Origin: Torpedo marmorata
Taxonomy: Eukaryota
NCBI GenBank assembly: GCA_977017645.1
Contig: OZ360220.1
Span: forward strand, 204,600,001 to 204,664,000
Direction: 5' to 3'
DNA: 64,000 nt
In this document: in pieces, positions 1 through 47,209 of the stretch
Numbering within the stretch: position 1 is the stretch's first letter
How the letters are laid out: every line of letters begins with the position of its first letter
Notes under the pieces: generated by a model
Databases searched by the model: none
What the model was told of the DNA's origin: nothing
The model's input: the letters and a program-made list of their open reading frames with translations, nothing else
Made by a program: the position numbers and the translations under genes

Positions 1-373
1 GCCTCATTCAATCTGTTCGGGAGGTCGTGTGCATCAAACAAAGGCTCAGCGTGGAGCCTGATCACCGAGGCCCAGCGCTCCCCTCAAAGCAAGCCATCGA
101 TTGCCTGCTCCCCACGACGGTGGGCCTGGGCCCTGCCCGTTGACTTCTCTCCCTCCCACCCTCGCGCGCCTGCAGGTGTTGGCACACCTGTCAATCAATT
201 AGTGTTTGGACGGTGGGGGGGGGGAAGCAGTCTGAGCCTCGGCGTGCGGCGGGCAGGAAGACGTGTTGCTGCTGTGAAGGTAAATACACAAACAATTTTT
301 TCCTGAAATCTCATGCTAAAAATGGGGGGGGGGGTCCTATATGCCAGTGGGTCCTATATGTCGTCAAATATGG
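1..373. mobile_element. Right end of a Tc1/mariner-superfamily (Tc2/pogo-like) non-autonomous DNA transposon; left end outside the window
   Basis: Ends ...gtgggtcctatatgtcgtcaaatatgg|TA, homologous to the TIR of the 36367-37127 element. Confidence 0.6.
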
Positions 374-519
374 TATGTTTAATTTACGTACCCAACAAGT
401 CTGCCGTGATTAGATAACCAAACTTTTACTGTATGTATTACAAATGCAGAGACTGTTTTAAATCTAGACTTGGAGATAAAGTAACTTGCTAGGATTTATT
501 ACTTGCACTGTCTCCTTAC

Positions 520-691
520 ATTGTGGTAGTTTTGCCAGCACCATTATGTCCCAGGAATGATGTAATCTGGCCTTCATAAAAGCCTAGTGTGAGCCCATCA
601 ACTGCCAGCTTCTTGCCATCTCGGTAGATTTTGACCAGGTTTTGAATGGAGACACCAAGCCGAAGGTGAGTTGGCTCCTCTTCAACACAGA
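520..691 (-). CDS. ABCA1: ABCA1-like exon (equivalent to exon 19, 172 bp): NBD1 with Walker A GHNGAGKT
   Basis: (I)[56 protein letters not shown](M); acceptor tttcag, donor gtaagg. Confidence 0.95.
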
Positions 692-2586
692 CTGAAAGAG
701 AAAAGGCCACAGACCGTGTAACCACTTAGTGACCGTCCACAAATTCATAGCACAAAATCAAAAGCCCGCAGATGCTAGAAATCTGAAATATAATCAGAAA
801 ATGTTGGAAATATTCAACAGATCCTCATGCTCATGGAAAAAAAAAGACAGTTCAGATGAATAGTCACTGCCCTTAAAAGATGGATCAGTTTCCTCCTCTT
901 ACAGGTACAAGCTGATTTACTGAGTGTTTTCATCAAGTTTTATGTCCACTGCACAGGTTTATCTTTAGGAGACACACTGCCTATGTGAATATCATGGTTT
1001 AAGTCATATGCTGAGATTGCTGTGCTGTGTGCACTTGAATGTGATGAAGCATTCTCCTTGGGTAGGTGCACATACTTTGTATTCATGCACATAGTGCAAA
1101 GCCCACATCTAATGCCTATTCCTTGAAATGAATAGATTCTCATAACACTTCAGAGGACAGTTAAATAACATAAATAGCCAGTAAAGATATCTGACCTTTG
1201 TCATTATGGACGTTTGAAACCAAATATGGCTTAATGACAATGTAGTAATTTTAGAGTCACTTCACTAACACTAGCTTTCCATTCCTTGCATTTGATGAAT
1301 GTACATGAAAATCCTCCATCACAATGGCCTGGAACTGATTGACTGACTTGAGCACTGGATATATGAAGAGGTTTGACCTTGTTCATAAACACTGTGGAGT
1401 TACAAACCCAGTAACTTCACCATAATGCTGTGCAACCTTTGTAAAAATTTACAGTAAAAAAAAAAAATCAGGATGGATCTAAAGAGAGAGGAAATGATAA
1501 CTAATGAGACTTTATTGACCTGAAACCTTGATTCTATTTTCTTCTGCCTGACCTGCTGAGGTTCCTGCACTTTTCTATTTTTATTCAAGGCAACAAACTG
1601 GAGCAGGATGGACTGCTTTAAAAAATCCAAAGGCATTTATTTCTGTTATCTTAATGCACCACAGCATCGTGATACACAACAAAAACGATAGTGGAAGCAG
1701 ATAGCTTTCTGAAGAATGTGTGCATTACTTTGAATGTCACTCACTCTTACATTGATGGGAGCAGGTGTCATTTAGAATTATTTTACTTATGTTTACAGGA
1801 TGTGGATGTTACTGGCAAGCTCAGTGTTTATTACTTGTGCTCTATTGTCCTTGAGAGAATGGCAACTGTGGGATGTGCAGTTCCTATGGTGAAGGTACTG
1901 CCATGATTCCAGAGGAATCCAGGATTTAAATTGAATGACAATGGAAGAATGTCAATATTTTTCCATGTTGGGATAGTATATGATACAAAGGGAGCCTGCA
2001 GATGGTGCCTGCCCCCCACGTCATTTTATATTAAGTTTTAAGGTTAGGAAGGTACCGCTAAAGAATTTCTGGCAAGTTGCTAACAGTGCCTTTTGCAGCA
2101 TTGAACGTTGAAGGTGATGTTTGTGGTGCTAATCCCCAAATCCCTGACAGCCTCAAGCTTTAAGTCTTGCTGGAGCTCACATGCCTGACTGTATATACTG
2201 GAAAGACTTTGGGATGTTATGAGGCACAGGATACCCAATCTCAGAAAAGCTTGTTTGTGTCTTCCTGGTATTTAATTCAAACGAGTTTGTCTTGATTTTT
2301 ATGGGATCAATGCCTAACGTTTCTCAAAGCATTATTTTTTATCAATTAAGAACCATAGGATAATCAGCAGAAGGAAGAGTGCTCTCTTAATTCACCAAGA
2401 AGCAGGTCTAAATTTACAACACATGAGAAAATCAATCGGAGTTCATCAGTGAATGATCACATTCCTTGCCATCCATTGGAATGGGTTTCTGGAAGGTGTT
2501 CCTTGAAATGAATAGATTGGCTGAAATCCATGGAATAGAATAAAAATAGCTCACGTTTCATTTCAAAAGTTGTTTTAAGCACCTAC

Positions 2587-2700
2587 TTTGTGAATCTGTA
2601 CTCTTTTCATATGGAGAATGTCTAATATCCCGAACTGGGTCTCCACACCAATAGGACTTGGTGAAAAGAAAGTACCAAGGTCTGGGAATTCCATATTGAC
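2587..2700 (-). CDS. ABCA1: ABCA1-like exon (equivalent to exon 18, 114 bp)
   Basis: (G)[37 protein letters not shown]; ttttcag / gtaggt; not in the ORF track, read manually. Confidence 0.93.
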
Positions 2701-2925
2701 CTGAAAATGAAACAACACAAAAAAAAATGAAGAACTACATTAATAAAAGTGCCCATACAGTGTTCTATCACTCAAAACACAACTTTTATTTATATTATGT
2801 GTTGGGTGATAACTATTCAGAGCCATGAGGTTTAAATAGACCAGGATTGCGTTGAAATCAACACTGCTGTGAGTCTTGCCACAAATCCTGCCCACCTCAA
2901 TGGCTTAAGCAGTGATTTAAGTAAT

Positions 2926-3175
2926 TTTTAAAATTTAGACATACAACATGTTAACAGGCCATTTCAGCCCACGAGCCCGTGCCACCCAATATCACCCAAT
3001 TGACCTTCAACCCTGAACTTTTTTGAAGGGTGGGATAAAAAACAGAGCCCCCGGAGGAAACCCACGCAGACATGGGGAGAACGTACAAACTCCTTACAGA
3101 CAGCACGGGACACAAAACCTGGTCACTGGCGCTGTAATAGCGTTGCGCTAACCGCTACGCTAACCGTGCCACCCC
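2926..3175 (-). mobile_element. tRNA-derived SINE (chondrichthyan HE1/SINE2-like)
   Basis: Minus strand begins GGTGGCACGGTTAGCGTAGCGGTTAGCGC (A-box-like), has core GAGTTTGTACGTTCTCCCC..GCGTGGGTTTCCTCCGG and an A-rich tail. Confidence 0.75.
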
Positions 3176-3200
3176 ACATGTCAAAAGTCACTTTTCCTAT

Positions 3201-4755
3201 CATAGATCACAGAACACGACAGCACAGTACAGGCCCTTCGGCCCTTGATGTTGTGCCGACCCATATATTCCTTTAAAAATTACTAAACCCTCCCTACCCC
3301 GTAACCCTCAATTTTTCTTCCATGCATGTGCCTGTCTGAGTCTCTTAAATGCCCCTAATGTTTCAGCCTCCACCACCATCCCTGGCAAGGCATTCCAGGC
3401 ACCCCCAACTCTCTACGTAAAACAATGTACCCCTGATGTCTCCCCTAAACTTCTCTCCCTTCACTTTGTACACATGTCCTCTGGAGTTTGCTATTCCTGC
3501 CCTGGGAAACAAGTGCTGGCTGTCCACCCTGTCTATGCATCTCAATCTTGTAGACCTCTAAGTCCCCTCTCATCCTTCTACGCTCCAAAGAGAAAAGTCC
3601 CAGCTCTGCTTACCTTGCCTCATAAGACTTATTTTCCAATCCAGGTAACATCCTGGTAAATCTCCTCTGCACCCTCTCCATAGCTTCCACATCCTTCCTA
3701 TTATGAGGTGACCAGAACTGAACACAATACTCTTAAGTGTGGTCTTGTCAGAGATTTGTAGAGTTGCAACATGACCTCTCTACCCTTGAACTCAATCCCC
3801 CTATTAATGAAGCCCAGCATCCCATAGGCCTTCTTAATTATCCTATCAACCTGTGCGGCGACCTTGAGGGATGTATGGGTTTGGACCCCAAGGTCCCTCT
3901 GTTCATCCACACTGCTAAGTAACTGACCATTAACCCTGTACTCAGCCTTCTGGTTTGTCCTTCCAAAATGCATCACCTCACACTTATCCGGATTGAACTC
4001 CGTCATTTCTCCGCCCAACTCTGCATCCTGTCTATATCCTCTTGTAACCTTTGACAACCTCAGCTCCATCCACAATTCCTCTAACCTTCATATAATCCAC
4101 AAACTTACTGACCCATCCTTCTGCCTCTTCATCCAGGTCATTTATAAAATTCACAAAGAGCAGGGGTCCCAGAACAGATTCCTTGCGGTACTCCACTAGT
4201 CACTGACCTTCACGCAGAATACTTTCCTTCCACTACTACTCTCTGATTTCAACCTGCAAGCCAATATTTTATCCACACAGCCAAGGTTCCATTGATCCCA
4301 TGCCTCATGACTTTCTGAACGAGTCTCTCATGGGGGACCTTGTCAAATGCCTTACTAAAATTCAAATAGACCACATCTGCCCTCATCAATTTCTTTTGTT
4401 ACCTCCTCAAAATACTCAATTGCGTTCGTGAGGCACGACCTTCCCTTCACGAAGCCATGCTGACTATCCTTGAGTAGACTGTACTTCTCCAAATGCTCAT
4501 AGATCCTATCCTTAAGAATACTCTCCAAAGGTTTGCACACCACTGACGCAAGACTCACTGGTTTATAATTCCCAGGATTCTCCCTATTGCCTTTTTTAAA
4601 CAAGGGGACTACATTTGCCATTCTCCAATCCTCCGGCACCTCCCCTGTTGCCAAAGAGGACTCAAACATCACAGCTACTGCCCCAACTATCTCTTCCCTC
4701 ACTTCCCACAGCAACCTGGGGTATATCGCGTCCGGCCCTGGGGACTTATCAATCA
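3201..4755 (-). mobile_element. CR1-clade LINE, 5'-truncated, frameshifted RT and 3' UTR
   Basis: ORF pieces KSPGPDAIYPRLL, PEDWRMANVVPLFKKG, SQHGFVKGRSCLTN, FNPDKCEVMHFG, QLYKSLTRPHL. Confidence 0.9.
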
Positions 4756-4903: not shown

Positions 4904-5108
4904 CTGGGAACACTGCCTCAATGTACCAGGTCATAACTGCATAGAGGAAGGTGTCGACTATCATGAGGATGATGGATGTAGTGATGTTATACTCATCGCT
5001 TTTTGATGGACTTGCAAACAGGTTCTTCCACTGGACCCCAACTCCCTGTTCCTCAAATTGGGCAAAATAATCAAAGCCAAAGCCAAATGCCACTGGGGAC
5101 AGCAGACT
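4904..5108 (-). CDS. ABCA1: ABCA1-like exon (equivalent to exon 17, 205 bp), TMD1
   Basis: [31 protein letters not shown]...[14 protein letters not shown](G); ttgtag / gtatgg. Confidence 0.95.
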
Positions 5109-6226
5109 CTACAAAAGTACAAGAAAGTGGGATTGAGAAAGTTATAGAGTCAGTCAATTGATCTTGTCTGTGCCATGTAGATTTACACCGTGCTGGTAAT
5201 GATCCTTTAAAAATGGGTGCCAGAATTATCCTGGCCACATGCACGGAGGAGCTCAAAAACATTCCGAGTCGCGTGGGTTTGAGTCTCTTTCCATAATCTT
5301 GAGCACAATCTGTGTGCCTGGCATTGCTTCGCAGAACAGAGGAGGTATCATGTTGCACTGTCTTCTGTCTGAGAGGGGAAGCCAAGATCTCTTCCAGGAG
5401 GACACAAATTGGCTAATCTTCAATCCTCCATCAACATGACTGAAAAAAGGCCATCTGACCATTACTCTGCTGCCTTGAGGCAACGTATTACTTATATATT
5501 GGTTGACATGCCACAGACATTAAAACAGCAAATAAACTTCAAAGGATTTTTTTACTGGTTGCAGAGTGTGTCCAACATCCTAAGGACAAGATGGGAACAT
5601 AACAAATGTTCTGATACAAAAGAAGAAACACCAGATGACAAGCTCAGCCTTCTGGGCGTGGTTTTAAACAAAATGATTAGTGCCAGCAGGTGAATGATGA
5701 AAAGGCAGAGTGCAGTACTGCCCCCACTACACCTGCAAATGGGCTTCTGAGCACCACCATCAGCAGCCAAGGTATACTATCAGAAGAACCAGCCCTGTAT
5801 AATGGGCTCAATGAGGACCCTTTCACATGTAGGAAAATAAGTGTACTATCATCAAGTAATACACTTATACGTCATTAAAAAAAAGTGCACACCCACTTTA
5901 CATCCAGTACATCTCATGTTCACTCCTGCTATATGTTCATTTTAAAAAGTATATTAGCACATCATGTTAGAATCGAACAACGAGCAAAGCCATTCAATGT
6001 GCATGCCTATGCACAGACGTGGTCTGCAGCTGGTGCAGTTGGATGCAGATTGCTCTTGCAAACTGTTCAACATGTCACTTCTTCTGATTTGAGAACATTT
6101 GATGCAGAAGATGAGCCATAAAGCATTACTGCACTGTGAACAATGCTCCCTGGAGCCAATATTCTCCCTCAAAAACAGGTTTTCTAACAGCATTGTTTTT
6201 ATTTATTAATGAAATTACCTACTTAC

Positions 6227-12536: not shown

Positions 12537-13053
12537 CAGGTATGCGCCGCTTAACGTCTACAATACGTTCTGTGAAATTGGGCGTTATATACTTAGCAAA
12601 GCTATATGGGATACTGTAGTGTACCTGTAAACTTTTTATTTGTAAGTAGGGATCAGTGTAGGGACCGACACGGGACTGTGGGGAGAGAGCGGGGCAGTGG
12701 GATCAGTGTGGGGACCAACACGGGGCTGTGGGGAGAGAGCGGGGCAGTGGGATCAGTGTGGGGACCGACACGGGGCTGTCGGGAGAGAGCGGGGCAGTGG
12801 GATCAGTGTGGGGACTGATACAGGGCTGTGGGGAGAGCGCGGGGCAGTGGGATTAGTTGGGACTGATACAGGGCAGTGGGGAGAGAGCGGGGCAGTCGGA
12901 TCAGTTTGGGTATACAGTATACAATTTCCTATAGCTAGCGATCGCTTTTTGTAAATTGCTGCAGACTTGCTCGCAGTAACTGAATAATTATGGGACCACG
13001 GACGTATATGCGGTCGGACGCTGCCCGAACGGATGTTAAGTAGTGCATACCTG
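12537..13053. mobile_element. Tigger (Golem/MER7-like) MITE with internal minisatellite
   Basis: TA|CAGGTATGCGCCGCTTAACGTC ... GATGTTAAGTAGTGCATACCTG|TA: about 22-bp imperfect TIRs and TA TSD; subterminal ttatgggaccac..gtatatgcggtc resembles Tigger3/MER7 as recalled. Confidence 0.85.
12649..12910 (+). repeat. GC-rich minisatellite, about 5 x 50 bp
   Basis: Unit ggggcagtgggatcagtgtggggaccgacacggggctgtggggagagagc. Confidence 0.9.
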
Positions 13054-15080: not shown

Positions 15081-15245
15081 TGTTGCGGATACACGCAGTC
15101 TTGGTACGCCGCGTATGACGTCATGACGTCATCACGCACTATATAAAGCGTGGCGCGGGAAACCATTGTTCGATTTGTAATAAAGGATGAATGAAGCACC
15201 ATGTCTCCGTGTGCTTGTGTATATGTAAACCTAGAATACACTACA
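15081..15245 (+). repeat. Gypsy 5' LTR (165 bp, TG...CA)
   Basis: TGTTGCGGATAC...CACTACA; contains tandem TGACGTCA (15116-15131), TATATAAA (15140) and AATAAA. Confidence 0.93.
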
Positions 15246-15387
15246 GATTGGCGACGAGGATCAAAATGAACTTCCCTAACAAGGAAAGGGAGGAGAAGAA
15301 AAGAAGAACGAAAACCTACCACATCAGTGAGCTCCACAGGCTCACTCACAAAGAAGAAAGAAGGGAAAACGCGGGAAAAGACACAAA

Positions 15388-17778
15388 ATGGCGGACAGCC
15401 GTTTCAGAGTACAAAGACTCAGAAGACTGGTATGACTACATTGAAAGATTCAATATGTACTGTATTGCCCACAATGTGACTGATACACCAGTAACCAAGA
15501 GGAAACAAGCTCTGTTTCTAAGTGAAGTGGGAAGCAAAACTTTTAAACTTATGAAGTCCCTTTTGGCACCTGAAAGACCAAGTGCTAAGACTTATGATGA
15601 ACTATGCACGGTAATAGGAGAACACCTATTTCCCAGAACCAGTAATTATTGTAGAACGTTATAAGTTTTATTCCAGAAAGCAAATGACAGGCGAGCCAAT
15701 AAGCGAATATTTAGCTGAATTACGCAGGCTATCAGAACGTTGTGAGTTCGGAGAATTCTTAAATGATGCATTAAGAGACCGATTGGTCATGGGTTTGGCT
15801 GACCGCAACACCCAACAACGATTACTAAGTAAACCTGATTTAGATATTAAGTCTGCTTATGCTACAGTGGTGAGTTTCGAAATGGCCAGCCAAATTATTG
15901 ATATTATACAAGGAGAACCCTCGACCGTAGGGTTTGTTACAAAACCAAACCGACAAGAATGTTTCCGCTGCGGGAAAAGCAACCACAGCCCTGACAACTG
16001 TTATTTTAAAAAGGCCAAATGCCATTATTGCGACAAAGAAGGACATATTAAATCCAGATGTCCAAGCAGAAAATTACTATACCAAAAGAGTAATAAACAA
16101 AAGCCAAAATAGAGCAGATAACCTTCCAAAGTAAAACAAATTAGAGAGAAAGACAAAACCCCTAGCAGTGAGTCTACTAATGACTTGGAAGAGGAAAAAG
16201 CGGTGGATATAACACAGGCAGTGGATGTAATGCATGTTCGCAGTGTGGGGGACAAGAAGTCTGAAATTTACGTAGATGTTAAGATCAATGGCAAACCTAT
16301 TCGAATGGAATTAGACACCGGAGCATCGGTAACTCTAATGCCAAAAAACATTATTCGAATTGTTGTCCAACCTTACCATAAAACAATCCGACATACTATT
16401 AAGAACAGTCACAGGGGAAAAAGTCAAAGTGATTGGTAAATGCAAAGTTAAGGTCGAATATAAGAGTAAGATCTCAAAAGACTTACCCATCGTCATTATT
16501 GACGCAAAGAGAAACGCCTTGTTCGGAAGGAACTGGTTATCACACATCCAATTGGATTGGATGGAAATCGGGTCAGTACTGAAGATTCAGACGGAAAATG
16601 AACCAAAACTGACACAAGTGCTGAAGAAGTATCAAACTTTATTTGGGAAAAGCCTGGGGAGAATCAAAGGAGCCGAAGCAAAATTACAATTGAAACCTGA
16701 AGCTGAACCAAAGTTCTATAAACCAAGGACAGTGCCTTTTGCAATAAAAGGAAAAATTGAGGCGGAACTCAACAGATTAGAAAATGAGGGAATCATTGAA
16801 AAGCTTCAATATAGTGACTGGGCAGCTCCCATTGTGCCAGTCCGAAAACCGAATGGAGAAATCCGAATTTGCGGAGATTATAAAGTCACTGTTAATCAAG
16901 CTCTGCAAGTACCGGAACATCCCATGCCAAGAGCGTAGGAATTATTCCAATCCCTAAATGGCGGGAAAAAGTTCACTAAGCTGGATTTATCTCAAGCGTA
17001 TCAACAAGTTAAATTGGATGAAACATCAAAGAAATATGTGGCAATCAATACCCATCGGGGATTATTCACATATACGAGAATGCCATACGGAATATCAGCA
17101 GCTCCTGCAATATTTTAAGCAATCATGGACAAATTACTGCACGGGATAAATGTAGGGTGCTACCTGGATGATATTATCACAGGGTGGGACGATGCAGAGC
17201 ACTTATCAAACTTAGAAAAAGTCTTAAACCGACCATAACAAGCGGATGTCCACCTGCGCAAAGACAAATGTGTATTTATGGTACCCTCCGTAACGTATTT
17301 GGGATTTACAATTAACAGTGAAGGCGTACAAATGAATACGGCAGGTACCGAAGCCATCCACAGAGCACCCTGCCCAACAAACAGAGCAGAACTACAATCG
17401 TTCTTAGGTTTAGTCAACCATTATCGGAAACACATCCCAGACATGTCCACCCTGTGCAACCCACTGAACCAGTTACGAAGAAATGACCAAAAATGGTGCT
17501 GGATTACCAAAACAAATGACGCCTTTAACCGGTTAAAGAAACTATTAACCTCAAGCAATAATGTACTCGTCCACTACGATCCGAACAAAGAGGTGACCCT
17601 AGCGGTGGATGCCTCACCAGTGGGTTTAGGAGCAGTATTGTCACAAATCACCGAAAAGGGAGAACAACCAGTGGCTTATGCATCTCGGTCCTTGACAGCT
17701 TGTGAACGCAATTATGCACAATTGGAAAAAGAAGGACTGGCCATAATATTCGGAATCAAAAGATTTCACCAGTACTTG
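15388..17778 (+). pseudogene. Gypsy gag-pol 5' part (gag with two CCHC knuckles, protease, RT, RNase H N-part)
   Basis: CFRCGKSNHSPDNC and CHYCDKEGHIKSRC; LDTGA at 16311; YLDD at 17161; DAS..GLGAVL; frameshifts and stops at 16936, 17116, 17236. Confidence 0.92.
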
Positions 17779-18470
17779 TATAAGTAACGGTGACTTCGCT
17801 CCACCAATAGTCACCTGGAGGCTAAGTGTGGTCCTTGCCTTTGACGCGTTTTATTTAATTTACTGACAAAGTCCAATATGTTCAAAAACCTTTATTTTCA
17901 CACATGACTTGCAGTAATCTTCAATGACTTTGATATAAACAGTTCTTGTAAACGATGTATGATAAGTTCCTTTAAATTATTCCTTAAACAATTCCAAAAC
18001 GATATGAAACACTGTAGATGATGTTAAAGTTATAGAAACATTATAAAACGGTATAAAACGGTCAATAAAGATGTGGAGACCAGACTCACCCCCCATACAT
18101 CTCTATCCTTTCTTTGTTCTCTCTCTCTAATGGTTCTGCGCATGCTCCAACGCGCATACTACAATTCCCAGCCTCCCACGCGCACTATGACGTCACTCTA
18201 TACTGCGCATGCGCCCGTCGGCACTCCCGCGCATGCGCATATCAAAGAATGGGCCGACGACGGCCCACAGAACAACGCAAGCGCTCCAAGGCCCGACATG
18301 GCCTCGGAGCGCGCTGAAGACGGCCCAGTGAACAACGCGAGCGCTCAATGGCCCGACGTGGCCCAGGAGCGCTCCGAGGACGGCCCACCGAACCACGCGA
18401 GCGCTCCAAGGCCCGACGAGACATCGGAGCGCCGCAACAACGGTAAGTTAACGAGCCTACGGCTCTTACA
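17779..18470 (-). repeat. BEL element 3' LTR (692 bp)
   Basis: Direct repeat of 23258-23949 with no differences seen by eye; minus strand TGTAAG...CTTATA; three about 60-bp CpG-rich tandem units at 18259-18443. Confidence 0.95.
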
Positions 18471-18670
18471 CCGGCCCCTAATTATTATAATTAGACGTAA
18501 TGTCTTGAATAATAATTACACTATAAATAATAATAACCATAACATTCAAAACAATACAAATCTTCTTTCTTCCTTCTTCATAAATCTAGAGTTTACCATA
18601 ACTCTGATTCAACAAAAGTCTGTAACCTGTGAAATGTACAACAACAAATAAAGTCAGTTTACATTTATCA

Positions 18671-18850
18671 AAGTTCCTCTGTCTCCAACAAAAGACAGAC
18701 CTGGTTAATAGGTCTGTTTAGAAAACCAGTCTTAGCTTTAATTCGCACTTGACGCACAAGTCCTCTTTGTCTTGAAAAGTCTCAATAATCTTTTCCAAGT
18801 AACCAGGAATTTCTTGAAGTTGAACCATCCATAACAATCACAATGTCTCT
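18671..18850 (-). pseudogene. Frameshifted remnant of the BEL/Pao pol C-terminus (DUF5641-like, post-integrase)
   Basis: Manual translation DIVIVMDGSTSRNSWLLGK/IIETFQDK/GLVRQVRIKAKTGFLNRPINQVCLLLE with two frameshifts, outside the long ORF. Confidence 0.8.
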
Positions 18851-18887
18851 TTAAAGTTCTTCCATCTTCACAATCCGAGTCAAAACG

Positions 18888-21800
18888 TTAACCAGTAAAC
18901 CTCAAATCCTCCTCAGATAAAATAGATACAGTTTTTCTTTTGAATTTAACACAAGGCACTTCTTCAGCACGTCGTTTCACTTTATTCCTTTCTTCAGTAT
19001 TCCACTTTTCATGTGAAGAATTTAAACTCTTAGAATTAGAATTTGAATATTTATCTGATTCTTTCGATTTTAAACAGGTCTGTTTAACCACTCTGGTTTC
19101 TATGGCTCTTTCCTGCAATTCTAAATCCAATTTTGCAACTTTCAATTCAGTCTCAGCTCCTTCCAAGAAATTAATAATTTGATCTGAAGTCAAAATATCA
19201 TATGGTACATTGATATTTCCATTGTCAATCCTGTCGCGACAAACTTGAAATTTTTTAATTTCTTCATCTTGTTTGTTACATATCTGCAATGCAATATCAC
19301 ATTCTTTCTGCATTGTTAATTGTTGAACATTCAATTTACATTCTTGATTGGTTTTTAAAGTCAACTGTTTTGAGTTATTAACCAATAACTTGTTTTCTTT
19401 TAAAACATTAATCTCTTCCTCCAACCTTTTACATTTTGATAATGCTGAATCTCTTTCCTCAATAACTGTATTCATTTCTTCAGCAGTTATTCTTTTCTTC
19501 CGCTTTCTGACTTTGCGAGTTTTACTTACAATTAAATCTTTCTGTTTACTGTTTTCTTGCTTATTTAATATTTCCAATTCTCCTTTCAACATTTTGTTCT
19601 CTGAATCATTATTCTTTATTTCATCAGCACAATTTTCTGTGTTCTCCATTTTTACATCACATTGCAATAATTCTTCATTAGCTTTGTCAATTGTAATCTC
19701 TGAACTACAAAATCTACATTCAGATTTGTTTTCAGTCACTTGTTTTATTCCTGTATTTGATTCAATTACACATGAATGATCAACAGTATTATTTGCAACA
19801 TCTTCTAATACTTCACTTTCATCCATTTCTGACGAAATTAATTTCTTCAATGTTGTTTTAAATACCACTGATTTATTTTCACATTGATCTGTTTTCTTTT
19901 CTTCATAAGTGATTTTCTTATTCACGGTTTTTTGCTCTTCTCTTAACTCTTCAAATTTCTCAACCGAAATTTTATTAACATTTATCGCTACCTGTTCCCG
20001 AGCAATATCATTATTTCTTTCCATTGGTCCATTGATTGCCCAACCAAGTATGGTTCTAATAGCGTAAGGTCCATTCCTTTTACTTTCTATTACTTCTTTT
20101 GGTACCAAAACTTTTGGCACATCTGAACCAATCAGCATTTCTATCTCAGAATTAATTTCAGGTAAATAAACCTTCCACAGATAAGCTAAATGATGGATAT
20201 CACTTTGATGAGGAATATTTCCTTCGTTCACAGGCATAGTCTTCTGAGTATATACACTTGGAAGATCACAAAATTTTTTGTCATCCAATCCAGCAACCTC
20301 TAAGCCTGAAACAATGTTAGTTTCAACAACCTTTTCTTGTCCCATTGTTTTTAACATAATTCTTGATTTTCTTCCTTGAATATTAAGTTTATTCATTAGT
20401 CCTTCCGTGCAAAAAGATGCAGTGCTACCTGGGTCTAGAAATGCATATGTTTTTACTATTGCATCCCCTTTCTTGGCCTTAACTTGTACAGGCACTATTG
20501 AAAGTTTGCAGTTATTCACCCCGGCCCCAGTAAGACCACTTGTCTGAACCGAGGTTATAACATTATTTTCTTTTGTTTCCTTTGTTTCTGTTTGCTCCTT
20601 TTCCAATTCCTTGTTTCTGTTACGGACATGCAAAATTCTAGGATGTTTAAAATTGCATATGTCACAATTAATTTGCTTCTCGCAGTTTTTACTGATGTGC
20701 CCTTTACACAGACAGCTAAAACATATTCCATTTTCCTTTAAGAAAGCGATCCTTTCTTTATGTTCCTTCCTTTCCAATTGTAAACACATTTCCAAAGCAT
20801 GTCCACCTTTACAGAACAAACAACTCTTTTCATTAGGCAAACTTTCCTTTTCCTTATTTATTTTGTCCTTTTCTTTACTTATAACTTGCACATTAGTAGC
20901 AAAAGTACTCCTTTTCACCTTCGGACTAGACTGTGAATTAGACTTCCTTACATCTTTACCCATTGAATTATCTCTGGCATTTCCATATAGTGGATCTGTT
21001 TCAACATACACTCGTCGTTCAAGAAAATTTACCAAATCCTTTAAGGTAGTTTTTCGACCGTAATCTACTTGTAAATTACAAGCCAAATCTCTCCATCTAT
21101 CCCATAACTTGTAAGGTAATTTTTCTAAAATGATTCGCATATTACTATGCACATCAAGCTCACGAATACCATCGATTTCTTCCATAGCATTACAACATCC
21201 TCTTAAAAACAAAGTATATTCTTGCAAAGCCTTTACATCATTTTGTTTTATTGATGTCCATTTAAGAGCTTTATCCATATAAGCTAAAGCAATTCGATGT
21301 TTGTTGCCAAAATATTGTTCCAATAAATCCTTAGCTTTATCTAATCCTCTTCCTGAAGACATTTGATTACAACTTTTAACCAGTTCCTTTGGATGTCCCT
21401 TTGTGAACATTTCCAAATAATAAAGACATTCATCTCGATCTTGGCATTTATCTTCAATATTGCGTTTGAAAGATCTCATAAACGATTGATATTGAAGTGG
21501 ATCACCATCAAAAATTTGTATCTCTTTCTTGGGTAAAGAAGAGAGAGACTGTAACTGAAACAATGATGCAGCAATTTCATTTTGTCTTTCCTTGGATGAC
21601 AATACATTGCTCTGTTCACCGTCTCTTGTTGTATGCAATGTATCTGGAAACCTTACTGGTGTAGTTTCTTCCATATTTCTGATGCTTGGCTCATATAACA
21701 AAGAAGCTGCTTCGTTCGACCGTACCCAATCCGCAGCTTTGCTTTCAGATGTTATTATTGGTACATGTGACTCGATACCAATATGCTCTTGAAAGGTTTG

Positions 21801-22850
21801 TCTTTGTATATGTAAGTTTTGTATCCTTGGTTCTAAAATATCTATCCTTTTGGTTGGTTTCTTTTCCTGTGACTCTTTTTTTAAATATGACCTTTTATCA
21901 TCAGACAATTTAGATGATTTACTGCTAACACCAGATACCATTGAACCTTCTATTGCTTTCTTTTCTGCCTTGGCAATAGCAATGTTTGCTTCCAGCTCCT
22001 GCAGTTCTTTTCTCTGTCTTAGCTGCTCCTTCTCTTGTCTTAGCTGCTCCTTTAGCTGCTCCTCCTTTTGTCTTAGCTGCTCCTTATTTTGTCTTAGCTG
22101 CTCCTCCTCTTGTCTTAGCCGCTCCTTTAGCTGTTTCTCATTTTTTCTTAGCTGCTCCTCCTCTTGTCTTAGCTGCTCCTTTAGCTGCTTCTCATTTTGT
22201 CTTAGCTGCTCCTCCTCTTGTCTTAGCTGCTCCTTTAGCTGCTTCTCATTTTGTCTTAGCTGCTCCTCCTCTTGTTCTAATATAAATTTATCCTTAAGCG
22301 TTTTTTGTTGTGCAAGAAGAGCGGCCAATTTAACATCAACCTTTGTACGTGACGATGCAGAACTTGAAGTACGAGAAACTCTGGAGCTTGAACCAGAACT
22401 TCTTTTGCTTCTCCTGCTTTCAGCATTTGAGACACTGTCACTTGCTTGTATTTCGTCCTGCAGTTCATATGTTGTCTTCATACTTACCTCTTTATCCAAT
22501 TCGAATTGTATATCCTTTACATCTTCAACCAATTCAATTTCTTCCTCATTTGGTGACACAATTTCAGCCATTTCCAAGTTATCTTCTTGTTCAAATAATG
22601 AAGCTGCCTCTTCATCCTTTGCCAGCTTCAATCTTTCAATAAGAGCCCTTTTATTTCCACTTATGTCCTTTTTCAGTCGCTTCAATTCTTCTTTAATATC
22701 CACAACCTTCATGTCTTCAATACGTTGGTCCTCAACAGCAACATCAGCGGTTGCTGCGTCAGCTGCTGATAAATCAGTAGCTGCTGTGTCAGTGGCTGCT
22801 GCGGCCATTTTACTCGTCTTGTTCCTCTTTCCTTCAAGCATACACAACAC
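18888..22850 (-). CDS. BEL/Pao Gag-protease polyprotein with N-terminal SAP domain and C-terminal MIPOL1-like coiled coil (1320-codon ORF; likely ATG at 22808)
   Basis: SAP-like IEDMKVVDIKEELKRLKKDISGNKRALIERLK; DUF1759-type LPKKEIQIFDGDPLQYQSF; CLFCKGGH..C, CFSCLCKGH..C, CDICNFKH..LH; protease YAFLDPGSTASF..IGSD..LGWAING; no YxDD; uninterrupted frame. Confidence 0.9.
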   Translation of the reverse strand: MLCMLEGKRNKTSKMAAAATDTAATDLSAADAATADVAVEDQRIEDMKVVDIKEELKRLKKDISGNKRALIERLKLAKDEEAASLFEQEDNLEMAEIVSPNEEEIELVEDVKDIQFELDKEVSMKTTYELQDEIQASDSVSNAESRRSKRSSGSSSRVSRTSSSASSRTKVDVKLAALLAQQKTLKDKFILEQEEEQLRQNEKQLKEQLRQEEEQLRQNEKQLKEQLRQEEEQLRKNEKQLKERLRQEEEQLRQNKEQLRQKEEQLKEQLRQEKEQLRQRKELQELEANIAIAKAEKKAIEGSMVSGVSSKSSKLSDDKRSYLKKESQEKKPTKRIDILEPRIQNLHIQRQTFQEHIGIESHVPIITSESKAADWVRSNEAASLLYEPSIRNMEETTPVRFPDTLHTTRDGEQSNVLSSKERQNEIAASLFQLQSLSSLPKKEIQIFDGDPLQYQSFMRSFKRNIEDKCQDRDECLYYLEMFTKGHPKELVKSCNQMSSGRGLDKAKDLLEQYFGNKHRIALAYMDKALKWTSIKQNDVKALQEYTLFLRGCCNAMEEIDGIRELDVHSNMRIILEKLPYKLWDRWRDLACNLQVDYGRKTTLKDLVNFLERRVYVETDPLYGNARDNSMGKDVRKSNSQSSPKVKRSTFATNVQVISKEKDKINKEKESLPNEKSCLFCKGGHALEMCLQLERKEHKERIAFLKENGICFSCLCKGHISKNCEKQINCDICNFKHPRILHVRNRNKELEKEQTETKETKENNVITSVQTSGLTGAGVNNCKLSIVPVQVKAKKGDAIVKTYAFLDPGSTASFCTEGLMNKLNIQGRKSRIMLKTMGQEKVVETNIVSGLEVAGLDDKKFCDLPSVYTQKTMPVNEGNIPHQSDIHHLAYLWKVYLPEINSEIEMLIGSDVPKVLVPKEVIESKRNGPYAIRTILGWAINGPMERNNDIAREQVAINVNKISVEKFEELREEQKTVNKKITYEEKKTDQCENKSVVFKTTLKKLISSEMDESEVLEDVANNTVDHSCVIESNTGIKQVTENKSECRFCSSEITIDKANEELLQCDVKMENTENCADEIKNNDSENKMLKGELEILNKQENSKQKDLIVSKTRKVRKRKKRITAEEMNTVIEERDSALSKCKRLEEEINVLKENKLLVNNSKQLTLKTNQECKLNVQQLTMQKECDIALQICNKQDEEIKKFQVCRDRIDNGNINVPYDILTSDQIINFLEGAETELKVAKLDLELQERAIETRVVKQTCLKSKESDKYSNSNSKSLNSSHEKWNTEERNKVKRRAEEVPCVKFKRKTVSILSEEDLRFTG

Positions 22851-23257
22851 TAGTCAAACAACAGTCCCCAATGGACCAGCGGCAGCAATTCCAATCTGTG
22901 TTCTTACTTGCTAAAGATACACAGAAGGAGTCCACAGACATATGCCTACCACTTCAAATGACTGTAATGTGCTGCAATCCACAAACGAGTTTCAACCACA
23001 ACATCCGTCACTAATATCACTGATTTTCCAAAAATGGTTTCTCCAACGTATTTATAGGACACTTTATTATAAGATTTGAAGCTTTAAATCCCTCTCTGGC
23101 TGTTACTCATGGCAGATGGATGTAGATTACAAACTGCCCCCAACTCGAGGCATCTCCAAAATGGCCACCAATTTATATCAGCCCAAAGCACAGAGAGTTT
23201 TTTTTTCTATCTTCTTTCCTTCAAACTTCTGTTCCAAACAACCAGCACTTTATTGAC

Positions 23258-23949
23258 TATAAGTAACGGTGACTTCGCTCCACCAATAGTCACCTGGAGG
23301 CTAAGTGTGGTCCTTGCCTTTGACGCGTTTTATTTAATTTACTGACAAAGTCCAATATGTTCAAAAACCTTTATTTTCACACATGACTTGCAGTAATCTT
23401 CAATGACTTTGATATAAACAGTTCTTGTAAACGATGTATGATAAGTTCCTTTAAATTATTCCTTAAACAATTCCAAAACGATATGAAACACTGTAGATGA
23501 TGTTAAAGTTATAGAAACATTATAAAACGGTATAAAACGGTCAATAAAGATGTGGAGACCAGACTCACCCCCCATACATCTCTATCCTTTCTTTGTTCTC
23601 TCTCTCTAATGGTTCTGCGCATGCTCCAACGCGCATACTACAATTCCCAGCCTCCCACGCGCACTATGACGTCACTCTATACTGCGCATGCGCCCGTCGG
23701 CACTCCCGCGCATGCGCATATCAAAGAATGGGCCGACGACGGCCCACAGAACAACGCAAGCGCTCCAAGGCCCGACATGGCCTCGGAGCGCGCTGAAGAC
23801 GGCCCAGTGAACAACGCGAGCGCTCAATGGCCCGACGTGGCCCAGGAGCGCTCCGAGGACGGCCCACCGAACCACGCGAGCGCTCCAAGGCCCGACGAGA
23901 CATCGGAGCGCCGCAACAACGGTAAGTTAACGAGCCTACGGCTCTTACA
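23258..23949 (-). repeat. BEL element 5' LTR (692 bp)
   Basis: Identical by eye to 17779-18470; on the minus strand followed by internal sequence GTCAATAAAGTGC. Confidence 0.95.
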
Positions 23950-23954
23950 ACTTG

Positions 23955-25621
23955 TATGGGAGGGGATTCACGTTAGTAACTGACAACAAACCACTAAGTT
24001 TAATTTTAGGGCCTAAAAAGGGCATTCCGGTATTAGCGGCGACAAGAATCCAAAGATGGGCCATAATGCTCACCGCTTATGATTATGAGTTGAAACATAA
24101 ACCAGCAACATTAAAACGGACATGCCGATGCTTTATCACATTTACCCCTACCAGAAACTGAACAAACAGAAGAGATAATCCATTGGACAGCAGAGGCAAC
24201 AGCTGTTAACCAAGAACAGCTTCGCCATCTGCCCATTACAGCCAAAATAATCAGCAAAGAAGTAAGAAACGAACCAACACTGGCCAGTCTTGTATTTTAC
24301 ATTAAATGGATGGCCAGAAGGGGACACTATTTCTCCAGACCTTAAGCCTTACTATACCCGACGTAATGAGATAACTATCGAAGACGGTTGTTTATTGTGG
24401 GGTGCCAGAATGATTATTCCAAGAAAATGGCAAAAAGACATACTTGCAGAGCTACATGACAATCATCCTGGAATGGTCCGAATGAAAGCATTAGCACGAA
24501 TGCATGTTTGGTGGCCATCAATGGACATAGATATCGAACAAACCGTACGAATGTGTGGCACTTGTCAAGAAATGCAACCCAAAGCCCCACAAGCCGAAGC
24601 AAACCCATGGAAATGGCCTTCACGACCATGGCACAGAATTCATGTGGATTTTGCAGGTCCATTCATGGGAGAGAATTTGTTTATTGTTGTCGACACACAC
24701 TCCAAATGGCCAGTGGTATCACACATGCGTACAACGACAACAATTCAAACAATTGAAAGATTACGAACTATGTTTGCATCATATGGATTACCAATGGAAT
24801 TGATCTCAGACAATGGGCCTCAGTTTACATCGGATGCTTTTAGAATGTTCTTGTGTAACAACGGTATACGTCATGTGCTCTCAGCACCGTACCACCCAAG
24901 CACTAATGGAGAAGCTGAGCGTTTTGTGCGAACATTTAAAAACGCCATGAAAGCTGGCAAATCGCTAAACATTTCCTGGAATCACAAAATAGCGAACTTT
25001 CTCGCAGGATACAGAAATACACCTCACTCAACAACTAAAAGAACACCAGCAGAATTGATGTTTGGACGCAGTTTACGAACACGACTCTCTGCTGTACACC
25101 CAGACATCGGCCTTCGTATCGAAAACGCCACTTCGCCAACTAAACCGACCAGATCACTGGAAGTGGGAGAAAGAGTGTTGGTACGAGATTACAGGGATAA
25201 TAAGGAAACTTGGGTAAGTGGCGTTATCATTAAGAAGTTAAGCCCTTGCTCGTATTCCATACAAGTAGGGACTAACATATGGAAACGACACATTGACCAA
25301 CTGAGAGCAGTAGAAGATCCAATAATGACATTACCAACAGATGAGCCCCAAGATTTTCCAGTTTGGGTCAATGACGACCCCCCAGTTATATCTCAAAATG
25401 ATGCTGATCTAGAGAGACGGGAAAGCAGTCCAGCCCAAGGCCTAAATAATGCTCATCGAAAACCAAGCTCCCAATCCGAGGAGGAGGTCAGTCCTGAGAA
25501 AGCAAAGAGTCCAGAAAAAGCAAAAAGTTCAGGGGTTCCGACAGCCTCAGGGGCCCCGCCCCTAAGAAGATCACACCGACAACGACGTCTTCCGGAACAT
25601 CTGAGAGACTATGTACCATGA
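23955..25621 (+). pseudogene. Gypsy pol 3' part (RNase H C-part, H2C2 zinc domain, integrase core)
   Basis: Resumes YGRGFTLVTDNKPL exactly where FHQYL stops; LHDNHPG..CGTC; HVDFAGP, SDNGPQF, SAPYHPSTNGEAERFV; 443-aa integrase ORF 24290-25621. Confidence 0.92.
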
Positions 25622-25791
25622 ACGGGACACTTGACATGTTATGATTATTATTATTACAGTGATATTCTGTAGTTGTAGTTCCTATTGTTACATGATATTT
25701 TGTAGTTGTAGTTCTCACAGTATACCTCAGTAGTTACGGTAGTTTTACATACTTGTTACCTGGGAATGTTTAATCATCTATGTTCTGTGGG

Positions 25792-25943
25792 GGGATACAC
25801 GCAGTCTTGGTACGCCGCGTATGACGTCATGATGCACTATATAAAGCGTGGCGCAGGAAACCATTGTTAGATTAATAATAAAGGATGAATGAAGCACCAC
25901 GTCTCCGTGTGCTTGTGTATATCTAAACCTAGAATACACTACA
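25792..25943 (+). repeat. Gypsy 3' LTR (5' edge eroded)
   Basis: Homologous to 15081-15245 with about 8 substitutions and an 8-bp indel; initial TGTTGC missing next to the G-run PPT; ends CACTACA. Confidence 0.9.
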
Positions 25944-36366: not shown

Positions 36367-37127
36367 CCGTATTTGATAGCATATCAGACCCACTTTTTTT
36401 ATCCCCAAAAAATGGCTCAAAAATATCCCCCAGGTCTTATATGCGAAGTTGAAATTAGGGTGATAATGGTGAGTAATGCCGACAGTGATCATCGTCGCTG
36501 TGTGGCTCACTAGCATCACCGCCATCTATCGTTGGGGGGTGGTGGCGGGCTGTCGGGGGGGAGCGGGGCGGTGGGATCAGTGTGGGGGCTGTCGGTCCCC
36601 ATATTGATTCCACTGCCCCGCTCGCCCCCGACAGCCCGTCACCAGTCCCCACACTGATCCCACCGCCCCGCTCCCCCCCGACAGCCCGCCACTTCACACA
36701 CTGATCCCACCACCCTGCTCCCCCCCCTACAGCCTGCCACCAGTCCCCACACTGATCCCACCGCCCCGCTCCCCCCACACCCAGGAGAGAGCAGGGCAGT
36801 GGGACCAGCGCGGGGACCGACAGCGGGCCGCCGGGAGAGAGCGGGGCCGCGGGACCAGCACAGGGACCAACAGCGGCAGTTTGTTTTTAATAAAATGTTT
36901 TCTGCTATAGCTAAACTGCTTTTGTTTTCTCTTGTAAATTACAGCAGTATTATTAAAAAGATTTTTCCTGTTGTCCTAGTTGCATGTTTTGTCTGTTTTT
37001 TTCTGCTATACTGTAGCTACATATTTCAATAACCCGTAAATACACAAAAAAAATTCTTAATATTCCCAGCTGAAATGGGGAGGGGGGAACTTATATGCAC
37101 GTGGGTCTTATATGCCATCAAATACGG
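36367..37127. mobile_element. Tc2/pogo-like MITE with internal minisatellite units
   Basis: TA|CCGTATTTGATAGCATATCAGACCCAC ... GTGGGTCTTATATGCCATCAAATACGG|TA: 27-bp TIR with 2 mismatches and TA TSD. Confidence 0.88.
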
Positions 37128-45500: not shown

Positions 45501-45742
45501 AAAACTCCCGTGGAGTTGTTGTTGTACTTGCGTAAGCTGTTTAAAGTTCCCGCGGCCCGACGGAGACTGCTACTTCTTTCGATTCTAAGGTCTGCCAGCG
45601 ATCTTTGTACATCCACGTTGTCGGGTAAGTTTGATTTTATGTTTCTTATTTTTTGTTTGATTTTTAGAAGTTCTGAACGGGAATATTTGATTATTCCCTT
45701 CAGAGCTGCACGCAAAGAGTCGCCGCTGTAAGGTGCCATCTT
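42556..45742 (-). mobile_element. Near full-length Rex1/Babar-type non-LTR retrotransposon (APE endonuclease + RT), inactivated
   Basis: LANVQSLENKLDEL..CFTETWL, VYIPP, IVGDFN, TLDHCY, HFGKSDN, KASGPDG, QFAYR, GAPQGCVLSPLL, KFADD; starts AAGATGGCAC; tail AATAAA(TTCTGA)n; stops at 43531 and about 43522 plus frameshifts. Confidence 0.9.
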
Positions 45743-47209
45743 AGTACCAGTGGGAGAAAAAGAATGGTCGATGTTTCGCGTCGGAACCCTTCATCGAGAC
45801 TAACCAACTAAGTGAGAATTCACCATCTAAATGAGAATTTACCTTCCTTATTTTCAAGTCATTCAACCCAGACTTTAGCATTTATTAATTCATAAGTTTT
45901 ACTGTCCATTGCCATTAATGAGAAATAACATAGAGAAATAGACCTACAGCTCCTCTGCTGTTTGAAAAGGCTAGCAAGCAGTACAATGAGCAGAGTGGCC
46001 TCTGTACTTAGATCTTATGATTTACTTGAAACGTCAGTAAAATATCCATCTTGACCACCAGAATCAACTGCTATCATGGACTCATTGCTCATTAAGCTTG
46101 TCAAAAGTGCTGCTGTCAGTGCCTTTCACAATTATCATGTGCCTCTCTGACCTTTGTGCAACAAATGTGATGTAGTTGCAGCGATAACAAAAAGGCCCAG
46201 CCTTAAAACAGAAGAAAAACTACTGAAAGCTATTCTTTCTATCCTAAAATGGACCTCAGAGTCACACAACATAGAACAGACCCTTCAGCCCATTGAATCC
46301 CCATCAACGACTCATTTACACTAATCTCATTTAATTTTCCCTGCATTCCCATCTGCATCCCCCAAGTTCTACCACTCTGACAGAGTAGGAGCAATCCACA
46401 GTGGCAATCAACCTACCAACCTGCACATCTTTAAGACATGGGAGGGAACTAAAGCAGCCAGAGGAAACTTATGTGGTCACAGGGAGAAGTGCAAATTCCA
46501 CCTGGACGGCATCAGACATCAGGGTTGAACCCAGATCACTGAGCTGCACCACTGTGTCACTCACTCACTGATCCTCGTGTGGTGCAAATCTAAAAGTGGT
46601 AACTTCTTAAAAAATGTTAACGGCCTACTTTTCTTTCACTTAATGCAGAAATACACCAACATGCTTGCAAATCAAATTCCACTTCCCAATTTTTGTATCG
46701 ACCTCAACACAGAACTGCACTCCAGAAGCTGTGTTCCTTGTTCACATGTTACCACAGCACCCCTTTAGTGTACACAACAGAGTAGCTGTTTCTTTCCCAT
46801 TTTGACTTCATATCATCTACCTATTTTATGCATTTATTGTCTCTTCTACTTCAAGTTTACTATTACAGTTTTTTTTTTTTAAGTACCTGTTTAGCTACAA
46901 AAAGTAAGAATTTTGGTGCATATGTACATTGTACAATGTATTTGACAACAAACTCATGATCATGACCCTATTCTGCAATTTTCGATCTTAAAATGCAAGA
47001 TTACAGGAAAAGAGCATGCACCCAAAAACGTATGTCCCGCAGCAGAAACAAAAATTGCTGACTCCTGCCAAAAGAATGGGTTCTGTACATTGAACACCAA
47101 TTGTATCAGTAGTCTGCCTTACGCTGCAAGGAACTATGATTAAATCAAATACATATCTAGCAGATGAACACATTCGAAAACTTGTTATAGGCAAATGAAT
47201 TATAATCTA

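Follow-up and report, generated by a model that had tools for sequence, protein, structure and literature searches.

Replication-defective transducing retroviruses depend on helpers and carry gag-onc fusions, in which pol has been replaced by host coding sequence. The window analyzed here, a 64,000-nucleotide stretch of the Torpedo marmorata genome (assembly GCA_977017645.1, contig OZ360220.1, positions 204,600,001 to 204,664,000), contains at positions 17779..23949 a long terminal repeat (LTR) retrotransposon that resembles those viruses in having host coding sequence fused to gag in place of pol and in its apparent dependence on a helper, but that is a germline element with no envelope or infectious stage seen and no sign of retained host function in its cargo. 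We consider it highly probable that this element belongs to a BEL/Pao family of more than 13,000 copies, in which reverse transcriptase (RT), RNase H and integrase (IN) gave way to intron-less pieces of BRCA1, MIPOL1 and ELOA that continue the reading frame of Gag-protease (Gag-PR), with the MIPOL1 piece likely derived from a circular RNA (circRNA) and the family likely served by the enzymes of a sister family.

Each of these ingredients has a precedent. Maize Bs1 (Elrouby and Bureau 2001, 2010), as summarized in PMC5131818 and PMC13317346, is an LTR retrotransposon with a chimeric open reading frame (ORF) built from spliced parts of three unlinked host genes, and it shares with the present family both this architecture and re-amplification from one origin. 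However, Bs1 is credited with a copy number of 1-5 (PMC5131818), whereas for the family described here, a vertebrate BEL/Pao lineage, cargo matches number at least 13,576; it also keeps SAP-Gag-PR in frame, carries exons in back-spliced order and co-evolves with a helper that has been identified. The LTR-mediated retrocopies of animals described by Tan et al. (2016, PMC5131818), which include those of the Pao elements BATUMI and BEL18_AG, likewise involve switches of template to host mRNAs, include incomplete exons and chimeras of several genes, have BEL/Pao elements among their carriers and underwent secondary non-autonomous retroposition; as described there, they are few-copy cases, and the word circRNA is absent from the available text of that paper, whereas the present chimera is a dominant family whose frame has been conserved over the long term.

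Two further systems match other aspects of the element. The wheat families RLG_WHAM and RLG_Sabrina_SA, with the helper RLG_Wilma, encode Gag and protease without RT or integrase, and combine high copy number with co-evolution with an autonomous partner (Wicker et al., PMC9744471); as presented there, they are plant Gypsy elements with no host-exon cargo on Gag-Pro, whereas the chimera and its helper belong to one family and exchange LTR, gag and protease. Mouse circRFWD2 pseudogenes, of which Dong et al. (2016, PMC4897178) report 33 high-confidence copies by a mechanism that they call unknown, have a reversed exon-exon junction, no poly(A) and flanks enriched in LTR sequence; in the present case, it is a defined LTR element that contains the junction, and the frame runs on from Gag-PR, which would provide a specific route through one capture followed by amplification. 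No paper on this element, or on the same combination of features, was found in the literature searched (papers pairing MIPOL1 with retrotransposons being judged by titles and abstracts), nor was anything relevant found on electric rays, LTRs and BRCA1.

Host exons in place of pol

When the window copy is compared with its autonomous helper, element positions 1-4018 and 5101-6171 match, and 1,082 nt of foreign sequence stand in place of about 3.2 kb of pol. The ORF is uninterrupted for 1,321 codons, as a preliminary description of the locus had reported. A Pfam search of the whole ORF, with a library copy lacking the MIPOL1 families, returned SAP alone, and a further Pfam search added DUF1759 and a weak aspartyl protease; none of these searches gave a match to RT, RNase H or the integrase core. 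The preliminary description was right that the enzymatic core is gone, but it spoke only of pol being lost, when in fact its place is taken by spliced pieces of BRCA1, of MIPOL1 in back-spliced order, and of ELOA. That the cargo might be pol read out of frame was rejected, there being no helper match beyond the integrase tail.

Protein matches of the cargo pieces were to MIPOL1 in nine of nine cases and to BRCA1 in six of six, with the third piece matching Elongin A; the closest came from batoids, Narcine nearest (the BRCA1 piece of the window copy is 54% identical to it over 142 aa), and host exons are 84% and 94% identical, which suggests a ray as the host. One host locus was found for each donor: the BRCA1 exons at G000:C61:25,497,377-25,488,147, those of MIPOL1 at G000:C40:64.49-64.39 Mb, and the ELOA gene at G000:C41:38.99-39.04 Mb. 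Narcine BRCA1 isoform X2 (P0010) itself starts with a retrotransposon Gag-like segment instead of the RING domain, which may be a mis-annotation.

A genome search with MIPOL1 brought up the host gene together with many older, more host-like chimeric copies; to map the exons, we fetched 28 of the latter and 320 kb of the host MIPOL1 locus. Identity of these older copies to both the modern element and the helper is 72-78% (their LTR pairs, where found, mostly 82-94%), and they are 84-100% identical to the host exons with the introns gone. They contain up to four BRCA1 exons and up to five ELOA exons, both spliced colinearly. All four junctions between templates (BEL-BRCA1, BRCA1-MIPOL1, MIPOL1-ELOA and ELOA-BEL) are mid-exon. 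Of the two inner switch points, BRCA1-MIPOL1 shows 2-3 nt of microsimilarity, whereas MIPOL1-ELOA contains a 20-nt filler; a later deletion has an 8-nt match. About 50 RT codons precede BRCA1 in older copies, at most some 40 nt of the integrase end remain, and in one copy (L110) the frame reads from ELOA into the last integrase codons. As in Bs1, then, intron-less partial host exons lie between discontinuous stretches of an LTR element, with no poly(A).

The 20-nt filler recurs in L107, L110, L113, L120 and L126 and is possibly a fourth template. Two other copies, L194 (5436-5656) and L195 (5249-5556), carry an extra ELOA piece, from the start of the large exon, upstream of BRCA1, which could be a further capture or an ELOA circle.

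Copy number and age

The chimera is not an isolated rearrangement. Exact 20-mers were found genome-wide 13,576 times for the cargo, 1,808 times for pol and 5,110 times for the LTR/leader, and never for the controls; since exact matching misses diverged copies, 13,576 is a minimum. At about 6 kb per copy, the family load is estimated at roughly 80 Mb, or 1.3% of the 6.2-Gb assembly. Among 40 scored DNA matches, all are full length at 98-100% identity, and 39 of the 40 fetched have an ORF of at least 1,245 codons, in a set that was picked by similarity and from which seven of the 40 loci were left out for mis-set LTR bounds. A positional sample, the first 40 of the 5,110 LTR/leader matches, on contig C1, gave the same picture: 39 of 40 contain gag-PR and cargo, 38 contain all three gene pieces, and none contains RT-IN. 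Three of these loci were dropped because the second LTR was out of range, and among the remaining 37 two-LTR copies, 28 have matching target-site duplications (TSDs), 28 have an ORF of at least 1,200 codons and 10 have no LTR mismatch, with a mean LTR divergence of 0.41%. In 20 further cargo matches outside this sample, the three pieces are always present and RT-IN is always absent; the LTRs of these copies vary and are often older.

Contigs from the sets of three organisms, from three studies, cover the stretch mostly at 90-99%, one of them bridging PR-BRCA1-MIPOL1 (19297-20201) and another the junction of MIPOL1 exons H and B (19173-19295); the sets X2 and X3 represent one sample, and one set may be the source sample. 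A single copy altered by deletion after insertion is ruled out by the thousands of copies with their own TSDs, which, together with the junction-bridging contigs from other runs, also dispose of an assembly chimera. The multi-copy, helper-dependent family that had been anticipated is borne out by the cargo matches and by sampled copies lacking RT-IN.

Among the observations on distribution, some copies form head-to-tail arrays with common LTRs (three LTRs and two internal regions), as at L024/L025, L204 and G000:C1:80.68-80.70 Mb, one array having five units; and four copies lie inside introns of MIPOL1, their own donor gene (G000:C40:64.34, 64.41, 64.49 and 64.495 Mb; L072-L103).

The abundance of the modern form bears on a camouflage model, to which we give scarcely any credence, whereby small RNAs against the cargo would also strike the essential BRCA1 and ELOA, leaving silencing incomplete. 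The donors are conserved genes with one host locus each, as this model would have it, and the idea has been described for gene-capturing elements of plants (PMC13317346); but the thriving modern form has a cargo whose identity to host exons is no more than about 80%, and older, host-like copies are the rarer ones (186 exact junction matches vs. 13,576).

With regard to age, exact alignment of the two LTRs confirmed identity across all 692 bp, and the 5-bp TSD, ACTTG, is perfect on both sides. The conclusion drawn earlier, that the element had just moved, is nevertheless too strong. Identical LTR pairs are frequent in the family (the 10 of 37 noted above), and very low mutation rates are reported for sharks, such that identical LTRs date the window insertion only loosely.

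The autonomous helper

The existence of an autonomous BEL partner, with LTR termini, primer site and polypurine tract (PPT) in common, had been postulated, and intact helpers of the same family, which share the LTRs, the primer site and the PPT, were located. A search with the PF05380 profile gave 150 scored matches, of which 20 loci were taken for their long frames: 19 match the gag-PR of the window copy at about 88-95%, and 11 have open ORFs of 2,018-2,134 codons that encode RT, Pao peptidase and integrase. In several, the two LTRs are identical, and PPT and leader are common to helpers and window element, with LTR identity reaching 96-99% in the youngest helpers. In L059 and L061, a single gag-pol ORF contains the Pao domains DUF1759, Peptidase_A17 and DUF5641 in the order PR-RT-RNase H-IN; the window copy is 93-99% identical to these two and retains DUF1759, protease and the integrase tail. 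The Pao-domain gag-pol of the helpers, the LTRs, the PPT and the 5-bp TSD place the family in BEL/Pao. The window element encodes no RT, RNase H or integrase and so is not autonomous; its high copy number, intact Gag-protease and autonomous partner with shared cis-elements are those of a semi-autonomous Gag-Pro element. Conservation of the frame suggests that the chimera's own Gag-PR may be made and used in particles.

The backbone of the modern chimera is a mosaic. Through gag-PR, it is 89-100% identical to the helper (96-100% in the protease of the window copy), but from a point near 20115, a breakpoint common to 29 of 37 copies, identity drops to about 75%, the protease beyond it being a segment of the old lineage. 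In trees of capsid (CA), protease and LTR, built from the window copy and the first 24 of the 37 sampled copies, 19 of the 20 helper loci (without L068) and those old copies covering each region (10 or 20 of 28), modern chimeras interleave with modern helpers, with 7-9 label changes, and old chimeras form a separate clade with 100/100 support. These sequence comparisons indicate that LTR and gag-PR are repeatedly refreshed from helpers, leaving an old cargo on a young backbone.

The same process explains the integrase remnant, whose two frameshifts, as earlier reported, are present as a +1 and a -1 indel some 22 nt apart. These offset each other and are not peculiar to this copy, the +1 occurring in 39 of 41 copies and the second-site deletion in 40 of 41. 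The modern 185-nt tail is 93% helper-like and old chimeras keep at most about 40 nt; the tail was therefore re-acquired by recombination, and, having been taken anew from a helper, its frameshifts do not date the loss of pol. That this loss is old holds true, on the strength of the older chimeric lineage; the use of the decayed tail as a clock does not.

A back-spliced order in MIPOL1

The MIPOL1 exons of the cargo stand in the order F-G-H-B-C-D. All 28 older copies contain F(part)-G-H-B, and most continue to C-D(part). In each of the 28, the H-to-B junction joins the donor of H to the upstream one of two adjacent acceptors of B, letter-perfect in 18 and with 1-2 substitutions in 10; the exact 20-mer across it occurs 186 times (control 0), and the window copy has the same junction, diverged, at 19234/19233. 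Exons B-H total 777 nt (780 with the upstream acceptor), so a circle of these exons would be in frame. No sequence of exons A and I was found in the 28 older copies. A reversed junction exactly at splice sites, with the captured sequence confined to the exons of one circle in the older copies and the window copy alike, suggests that the MIPOL1 piece was likely taken from a back-spliced circRNA.

The order might instead have arisen without a circle, through RT template switching on linear mRNA, trans-splicing, or a genomic exon duplication since lost. The chimera's other junctions are of the template-switch type, the ends of H and B share a 3-nt microhomology, no paper on circMIPOL1 was found in the literature searched, and Dong et al. 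(PMC4897178) allow that non-colinear junctions can have other sources. Nevertheless, we regard this as unlikely: in all 28 older copies, the junction coincides exactly with the donor of H and an acceptor of B, vs. four other junctions that are all mid-exon; the captured MIPOL1 sequence lies entirely within B-H; and the host locus has no duplicated exon B outside element copies. A genomic exon duplication at MIPOL1 was rejected as a candidate, none being seen in the 320-kb locus, which contains one colinear exon set.

Separately, one older copy (L105:6336-7437) contains tandem 405-nt repeats of F-G-H-B with mid-exon breakpoints, likely a duplication after capture and not rolling-circle copying.

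Conservation of the reading frame

The cargo of the window copy is about 69-88% identical to host exons, an overall drift of some 19%. Over the roughly 200 substitutions separating it from the host, no stop codon has arisen (simulated mean 7.4; P(0 stops) = 0.0013), and every deletion in the cargo relative to the host preserves the frame, leaving no net frameshift. Among 38 sampled copies, there are no shared stop codons, and shared indels are in frame in four of four cases in the ORF vs. none of nine in the 3' non-coding part; private ORF indels are in frame in seven cases and out of frame in six. As proposed in the preliminary description, the ORF appears to have been kept open by selection.

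A pure RNA parasite, whose ORF is dispensable and remains open merely from the youth of the copies and the refreshing of gag-PR by helpers, would account for the interleaving of gag-PR and LTR with those of helpers and for the amino acid drift of the cargo. We think this very unlikely: the cargo cannot be refreshed from a helper, yet it has remained stop-free and has sustained several deletions, all of them frame-keeping, and the absence of shared stops stands against a neighboring non-coding part in which 20 of 20 indels are non-triplet.

What is conserved beyond the frame is less uniform. Relative to host exons, dN/dS is 1.31 for BRCA1, 1.56 for MIPOL1 and 0.71 for ELOA, none differing from neutral, with host-gene change and a fixed kappa adding noise to these estimates. 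Among shared variants (codons 106-304, a repeat, being excluded), omega is 0.14 for capsid, 0.16 for protease, 0.33 for MIPOL1 (p = 0.0014), 0.90 for BRCA1 and 0.79 for ELOA; unlike the capsid and protease values, those of the cargo cannot have been imported from helpers. An AlphaFold model of the cargo from the single sequence has a mean predicted local distance difference test (pLDDT) score of 53.9 and a predicted template modelling score (pTM) of 0.26. The patterns of stops, indels and substitutions suggest that selection probably acts mainly on a translatable frame (Gag-PR supply and the avoidance of early stops), and not on the original host protein sequences.

It is possible, if doubtful, that the cargo, and chiefly the MIPOL1 coiled coil, has gained a job in the element, such as a scaffold, recruitment of helper Gag-Pol, or interference with partners of BRCA1, MIPOL1 or Elongin, which would explain the ratio of chimera to helper of about 7 to 1. 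The MIPOL1 omega, from 19 nonsynonymous and 18 synonymous shared variants (0.37 in 68 copies), would fit such a role, as would predicted long helices with pLDDT of 74-89 at residues 151-230 and the survival of the same three-gene cassette through replacement of the backbone. However, the long-term dN/dS of BRCA1 and MIPOL1 against the host is 1.3-1.6, shared variants of BRCA1 and ELOA are near neutral, the Elongin-A region matching PF06881 in old copies has been deleted in the modern lineage, and the MIPOL1 signal comes from one of seven regions tested, with linked variants that are not independent.

Probable self-priming

A motif within the LTR is complementary to the 10 nt that immediately follow the LTR, 292 nt downstream of it; only 4 of 2000 shuffled LTRs reach 10 bp, and the pairing co-varies, amounting to 10-16 bp in five sequence variants (the modern form, L060, L063 and two old forms). 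No TGG of a tRNA-type primer site follows the LTR, though no tRNA library search was made. A primer site that adjoins the LTR and can pair with a motif inside it, here with covariation (L060, L063, L111-L130), is also the mark of Tf1-type elements, from which the present one differs in being BEL/Pao; its LTR motif is a putative RNA 5' end. On this evidence, the family, helpers included, is likely to use Tf1-like self-priming. Hairpin priming is described for some chromoviruses (PMC3601003); no paper on self-primed BEL elements was found in the literature searched, which is weak evidence of absence.

Proposed origin and persistence of the chimera

The element probably arose as follows. In an older BEL lineage, RT would have jumped among co-packaged RNAs, from the element to BRCA1 mRNA, a MIPOL1 circle, the 20-nt filler, ELOA mRNA and back to the integrase end, yielding one continuous frame. 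Transcription would be driven by the LTR, and the RNA would prime itself through pairing of the LTR motif with the primer site; translation as Gag-PR-cargo, followed by co-assembly with helper Gag-Pol, would allow RT and integrase to be borrowed; and template switches between co-packaged genomes would swap in the LTR, gag, protease and 3' tail of the current helper.

The sequences show directly how the element is built, which donors and exon junctions it has, how often it occurs, which helper it has, that its backbone is a mosaic and that its frame is conserved; mobilization in trans, translation, the circRNA template and self-priming are inferred from them. Several points weigh against this reading. 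Only one of the four shared in-frame indels falls in the cargo; dN/dS against host exons does not differ from neutral for any of the three cargo pieces, yet among shared variants of young copies the MIPOL1 omega is 0.33 (singletons 0.87), which selection for an open frame only does not predict; and the low omega of capsid and protease may come from helpers by recombination, and is no proof of selection on the chimera. The ORF is broken in 9 of the 37 sampled copies and is mostly broken in the older subfamilies, and some counted copies are segmental or tandem duplicates (e.g., L199-L202, L031-L033). The starred branches of the capsid and protease trees force only 2 and 1 changes, vs. 5 for the LTR, which is thus where the case for repeated exchange is strongest. 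The microhomology at the H-B junction is compatible with a template switch on linear mRNA.

A broader view, which we put forward tentatively and with low confidence, is that a circRNA captured once, with pieces of BRCA1 and ELOA mRNA, became a selfish coding module, which survived the retrotransposon in which it began by moving across successive helper backbones, now making up about 1% of a vertebrate genome, with the MIPOL1 coiled coil repurposed to out-compete a self-priming BEL helper. The MIPOL1 'retrocopies' of cartilaginous fishes would then be transposon cargo and not selected retrogenes. MIPOL1 ranks first among the top retrocopy parents in cartilaginous fishes in a preprint (bioRxiv 10.64898/2026.06.26.734816) that offers a model of formation bias and selective filtering, and whose available text leaves BRCA1 and ELOA unmentioned. 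The present element is likely a simpler cause of that excess.

These findings offer a concrete route from a circRNA to thousands of genomic copies, a matter left open by Dong et al. (2016), and an instance of Bs1-type multi-gene capture thriving at more than 13,000 copies in a vertebrate, with BRCA1 fragments in its cargo. The family also forms a large natural data set on why helper-dependent elements keep their frames and how they follow their helpers through recombination. In practical terms, read mapping and copy-number calls for BRCA1, MIPOL1 and ELOA in these rays will be confounded.

Structure of the element and its surroundings

Features are listed in Table 1. The TG...TA termini (TA at window 17779-17780 and 23258-23259), in place of the canonical TG...CA, occur in all well-bounded copies and in intact helpers (L051-L070). 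The SAP domain at the N-terminus of a BEL Gag is followed by a coiled-coil repeat of variable length, and helpers carry both.

Table 1. Features of the element at 17779..23949, in window coordinates
Feature	Position	Strand	Source
Target-site duplication ACTTG (+ strand), copy 1	23950..23954	.	sequence
5' LTR, 692 bp, TG...TA termini, U3 with three 60-bp repeats	23258..23949	-	
LTR-internal motif, complement of the first 10 nt past the LTR; putative RNA 5' end and self-priming partner	23540..23549	-	
Primer-binding position, directly after 5' LTR; no tRNA-type TGG	23248..23257	-	
Single ORF running for 1,321 codons from stop to stop and encoding SAP, coiled-coil repeats, Gag, three zinc knuckles, protease, BRCA1, MIPOL1, ELOA	18888..22853	-	
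SAP domain, Gag N-terminus; also in helpers	22626..22721	-	
Variable 21/33/54-nt tandem repeat coding for Gln/Glu/Arg-rich coiled coil	22010..22308	-	
BEL/Pao Gag core, DUF1759, 27.9 bits, above cut-off	21090..21512	-	Pfam
Three Cys/His zinc knuckles	20628..20822	-	read from translation
Aspartic protease, D-P-G-S motif; weak Pfam aspartyl-protease match	20040..20500	-	
Captured BRCA1: 149-nt exon spliced onto start of giant exon; ~80% to host exons	19532..19936	-	
Spliced MIPOL1 cargo: part of exon F, then exons G and H; 81-88% to host exons	19234..19539	-	
Back-splice signature: the end of MIPOL1 exon H adjoins the start of exon B, which precedes it in the gene (non-colinear)	19233..19234	-	
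MIPOL1 cargo past the junction: the first 74 nt of exon B, then part of exon C	19078..19233	-	
ELOA (Elongin A) cargo, from the end of the large exon and the start of a later one; ORF stop inside	18859..19089	-	
Integrase C-terminal remnant, untranslated, 93% to modern helper; +1 / -1 indels near 18790 / 18768	18666..18849	-	
Polypurine tract, same in helpers	18471..18485	-	
3' LTR, same sequence as 5' LTR	17779..18470	-	
Target-site duplication, copy 2	17774..17778	.	

The insertion interrupts an older Gypsy element (window about 15087-25943) in its RNase H region. That older element is frameshifted and contains a gag knuckle, protease, RT-RNase H and integrase; its LTRs, at about 15087-15245 and 25793-25943, are identical in 144 of 159 columns. 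Elsewhere in the window, LINE-like RT fragments (PF00078) with an ALKBH8_N-like tail occupy 42966-45790 on the minus strand, and a 50-bp G-rich tandem repeat at 12649-12915 and 36533-36900 recurs in inverted and palindromic form.

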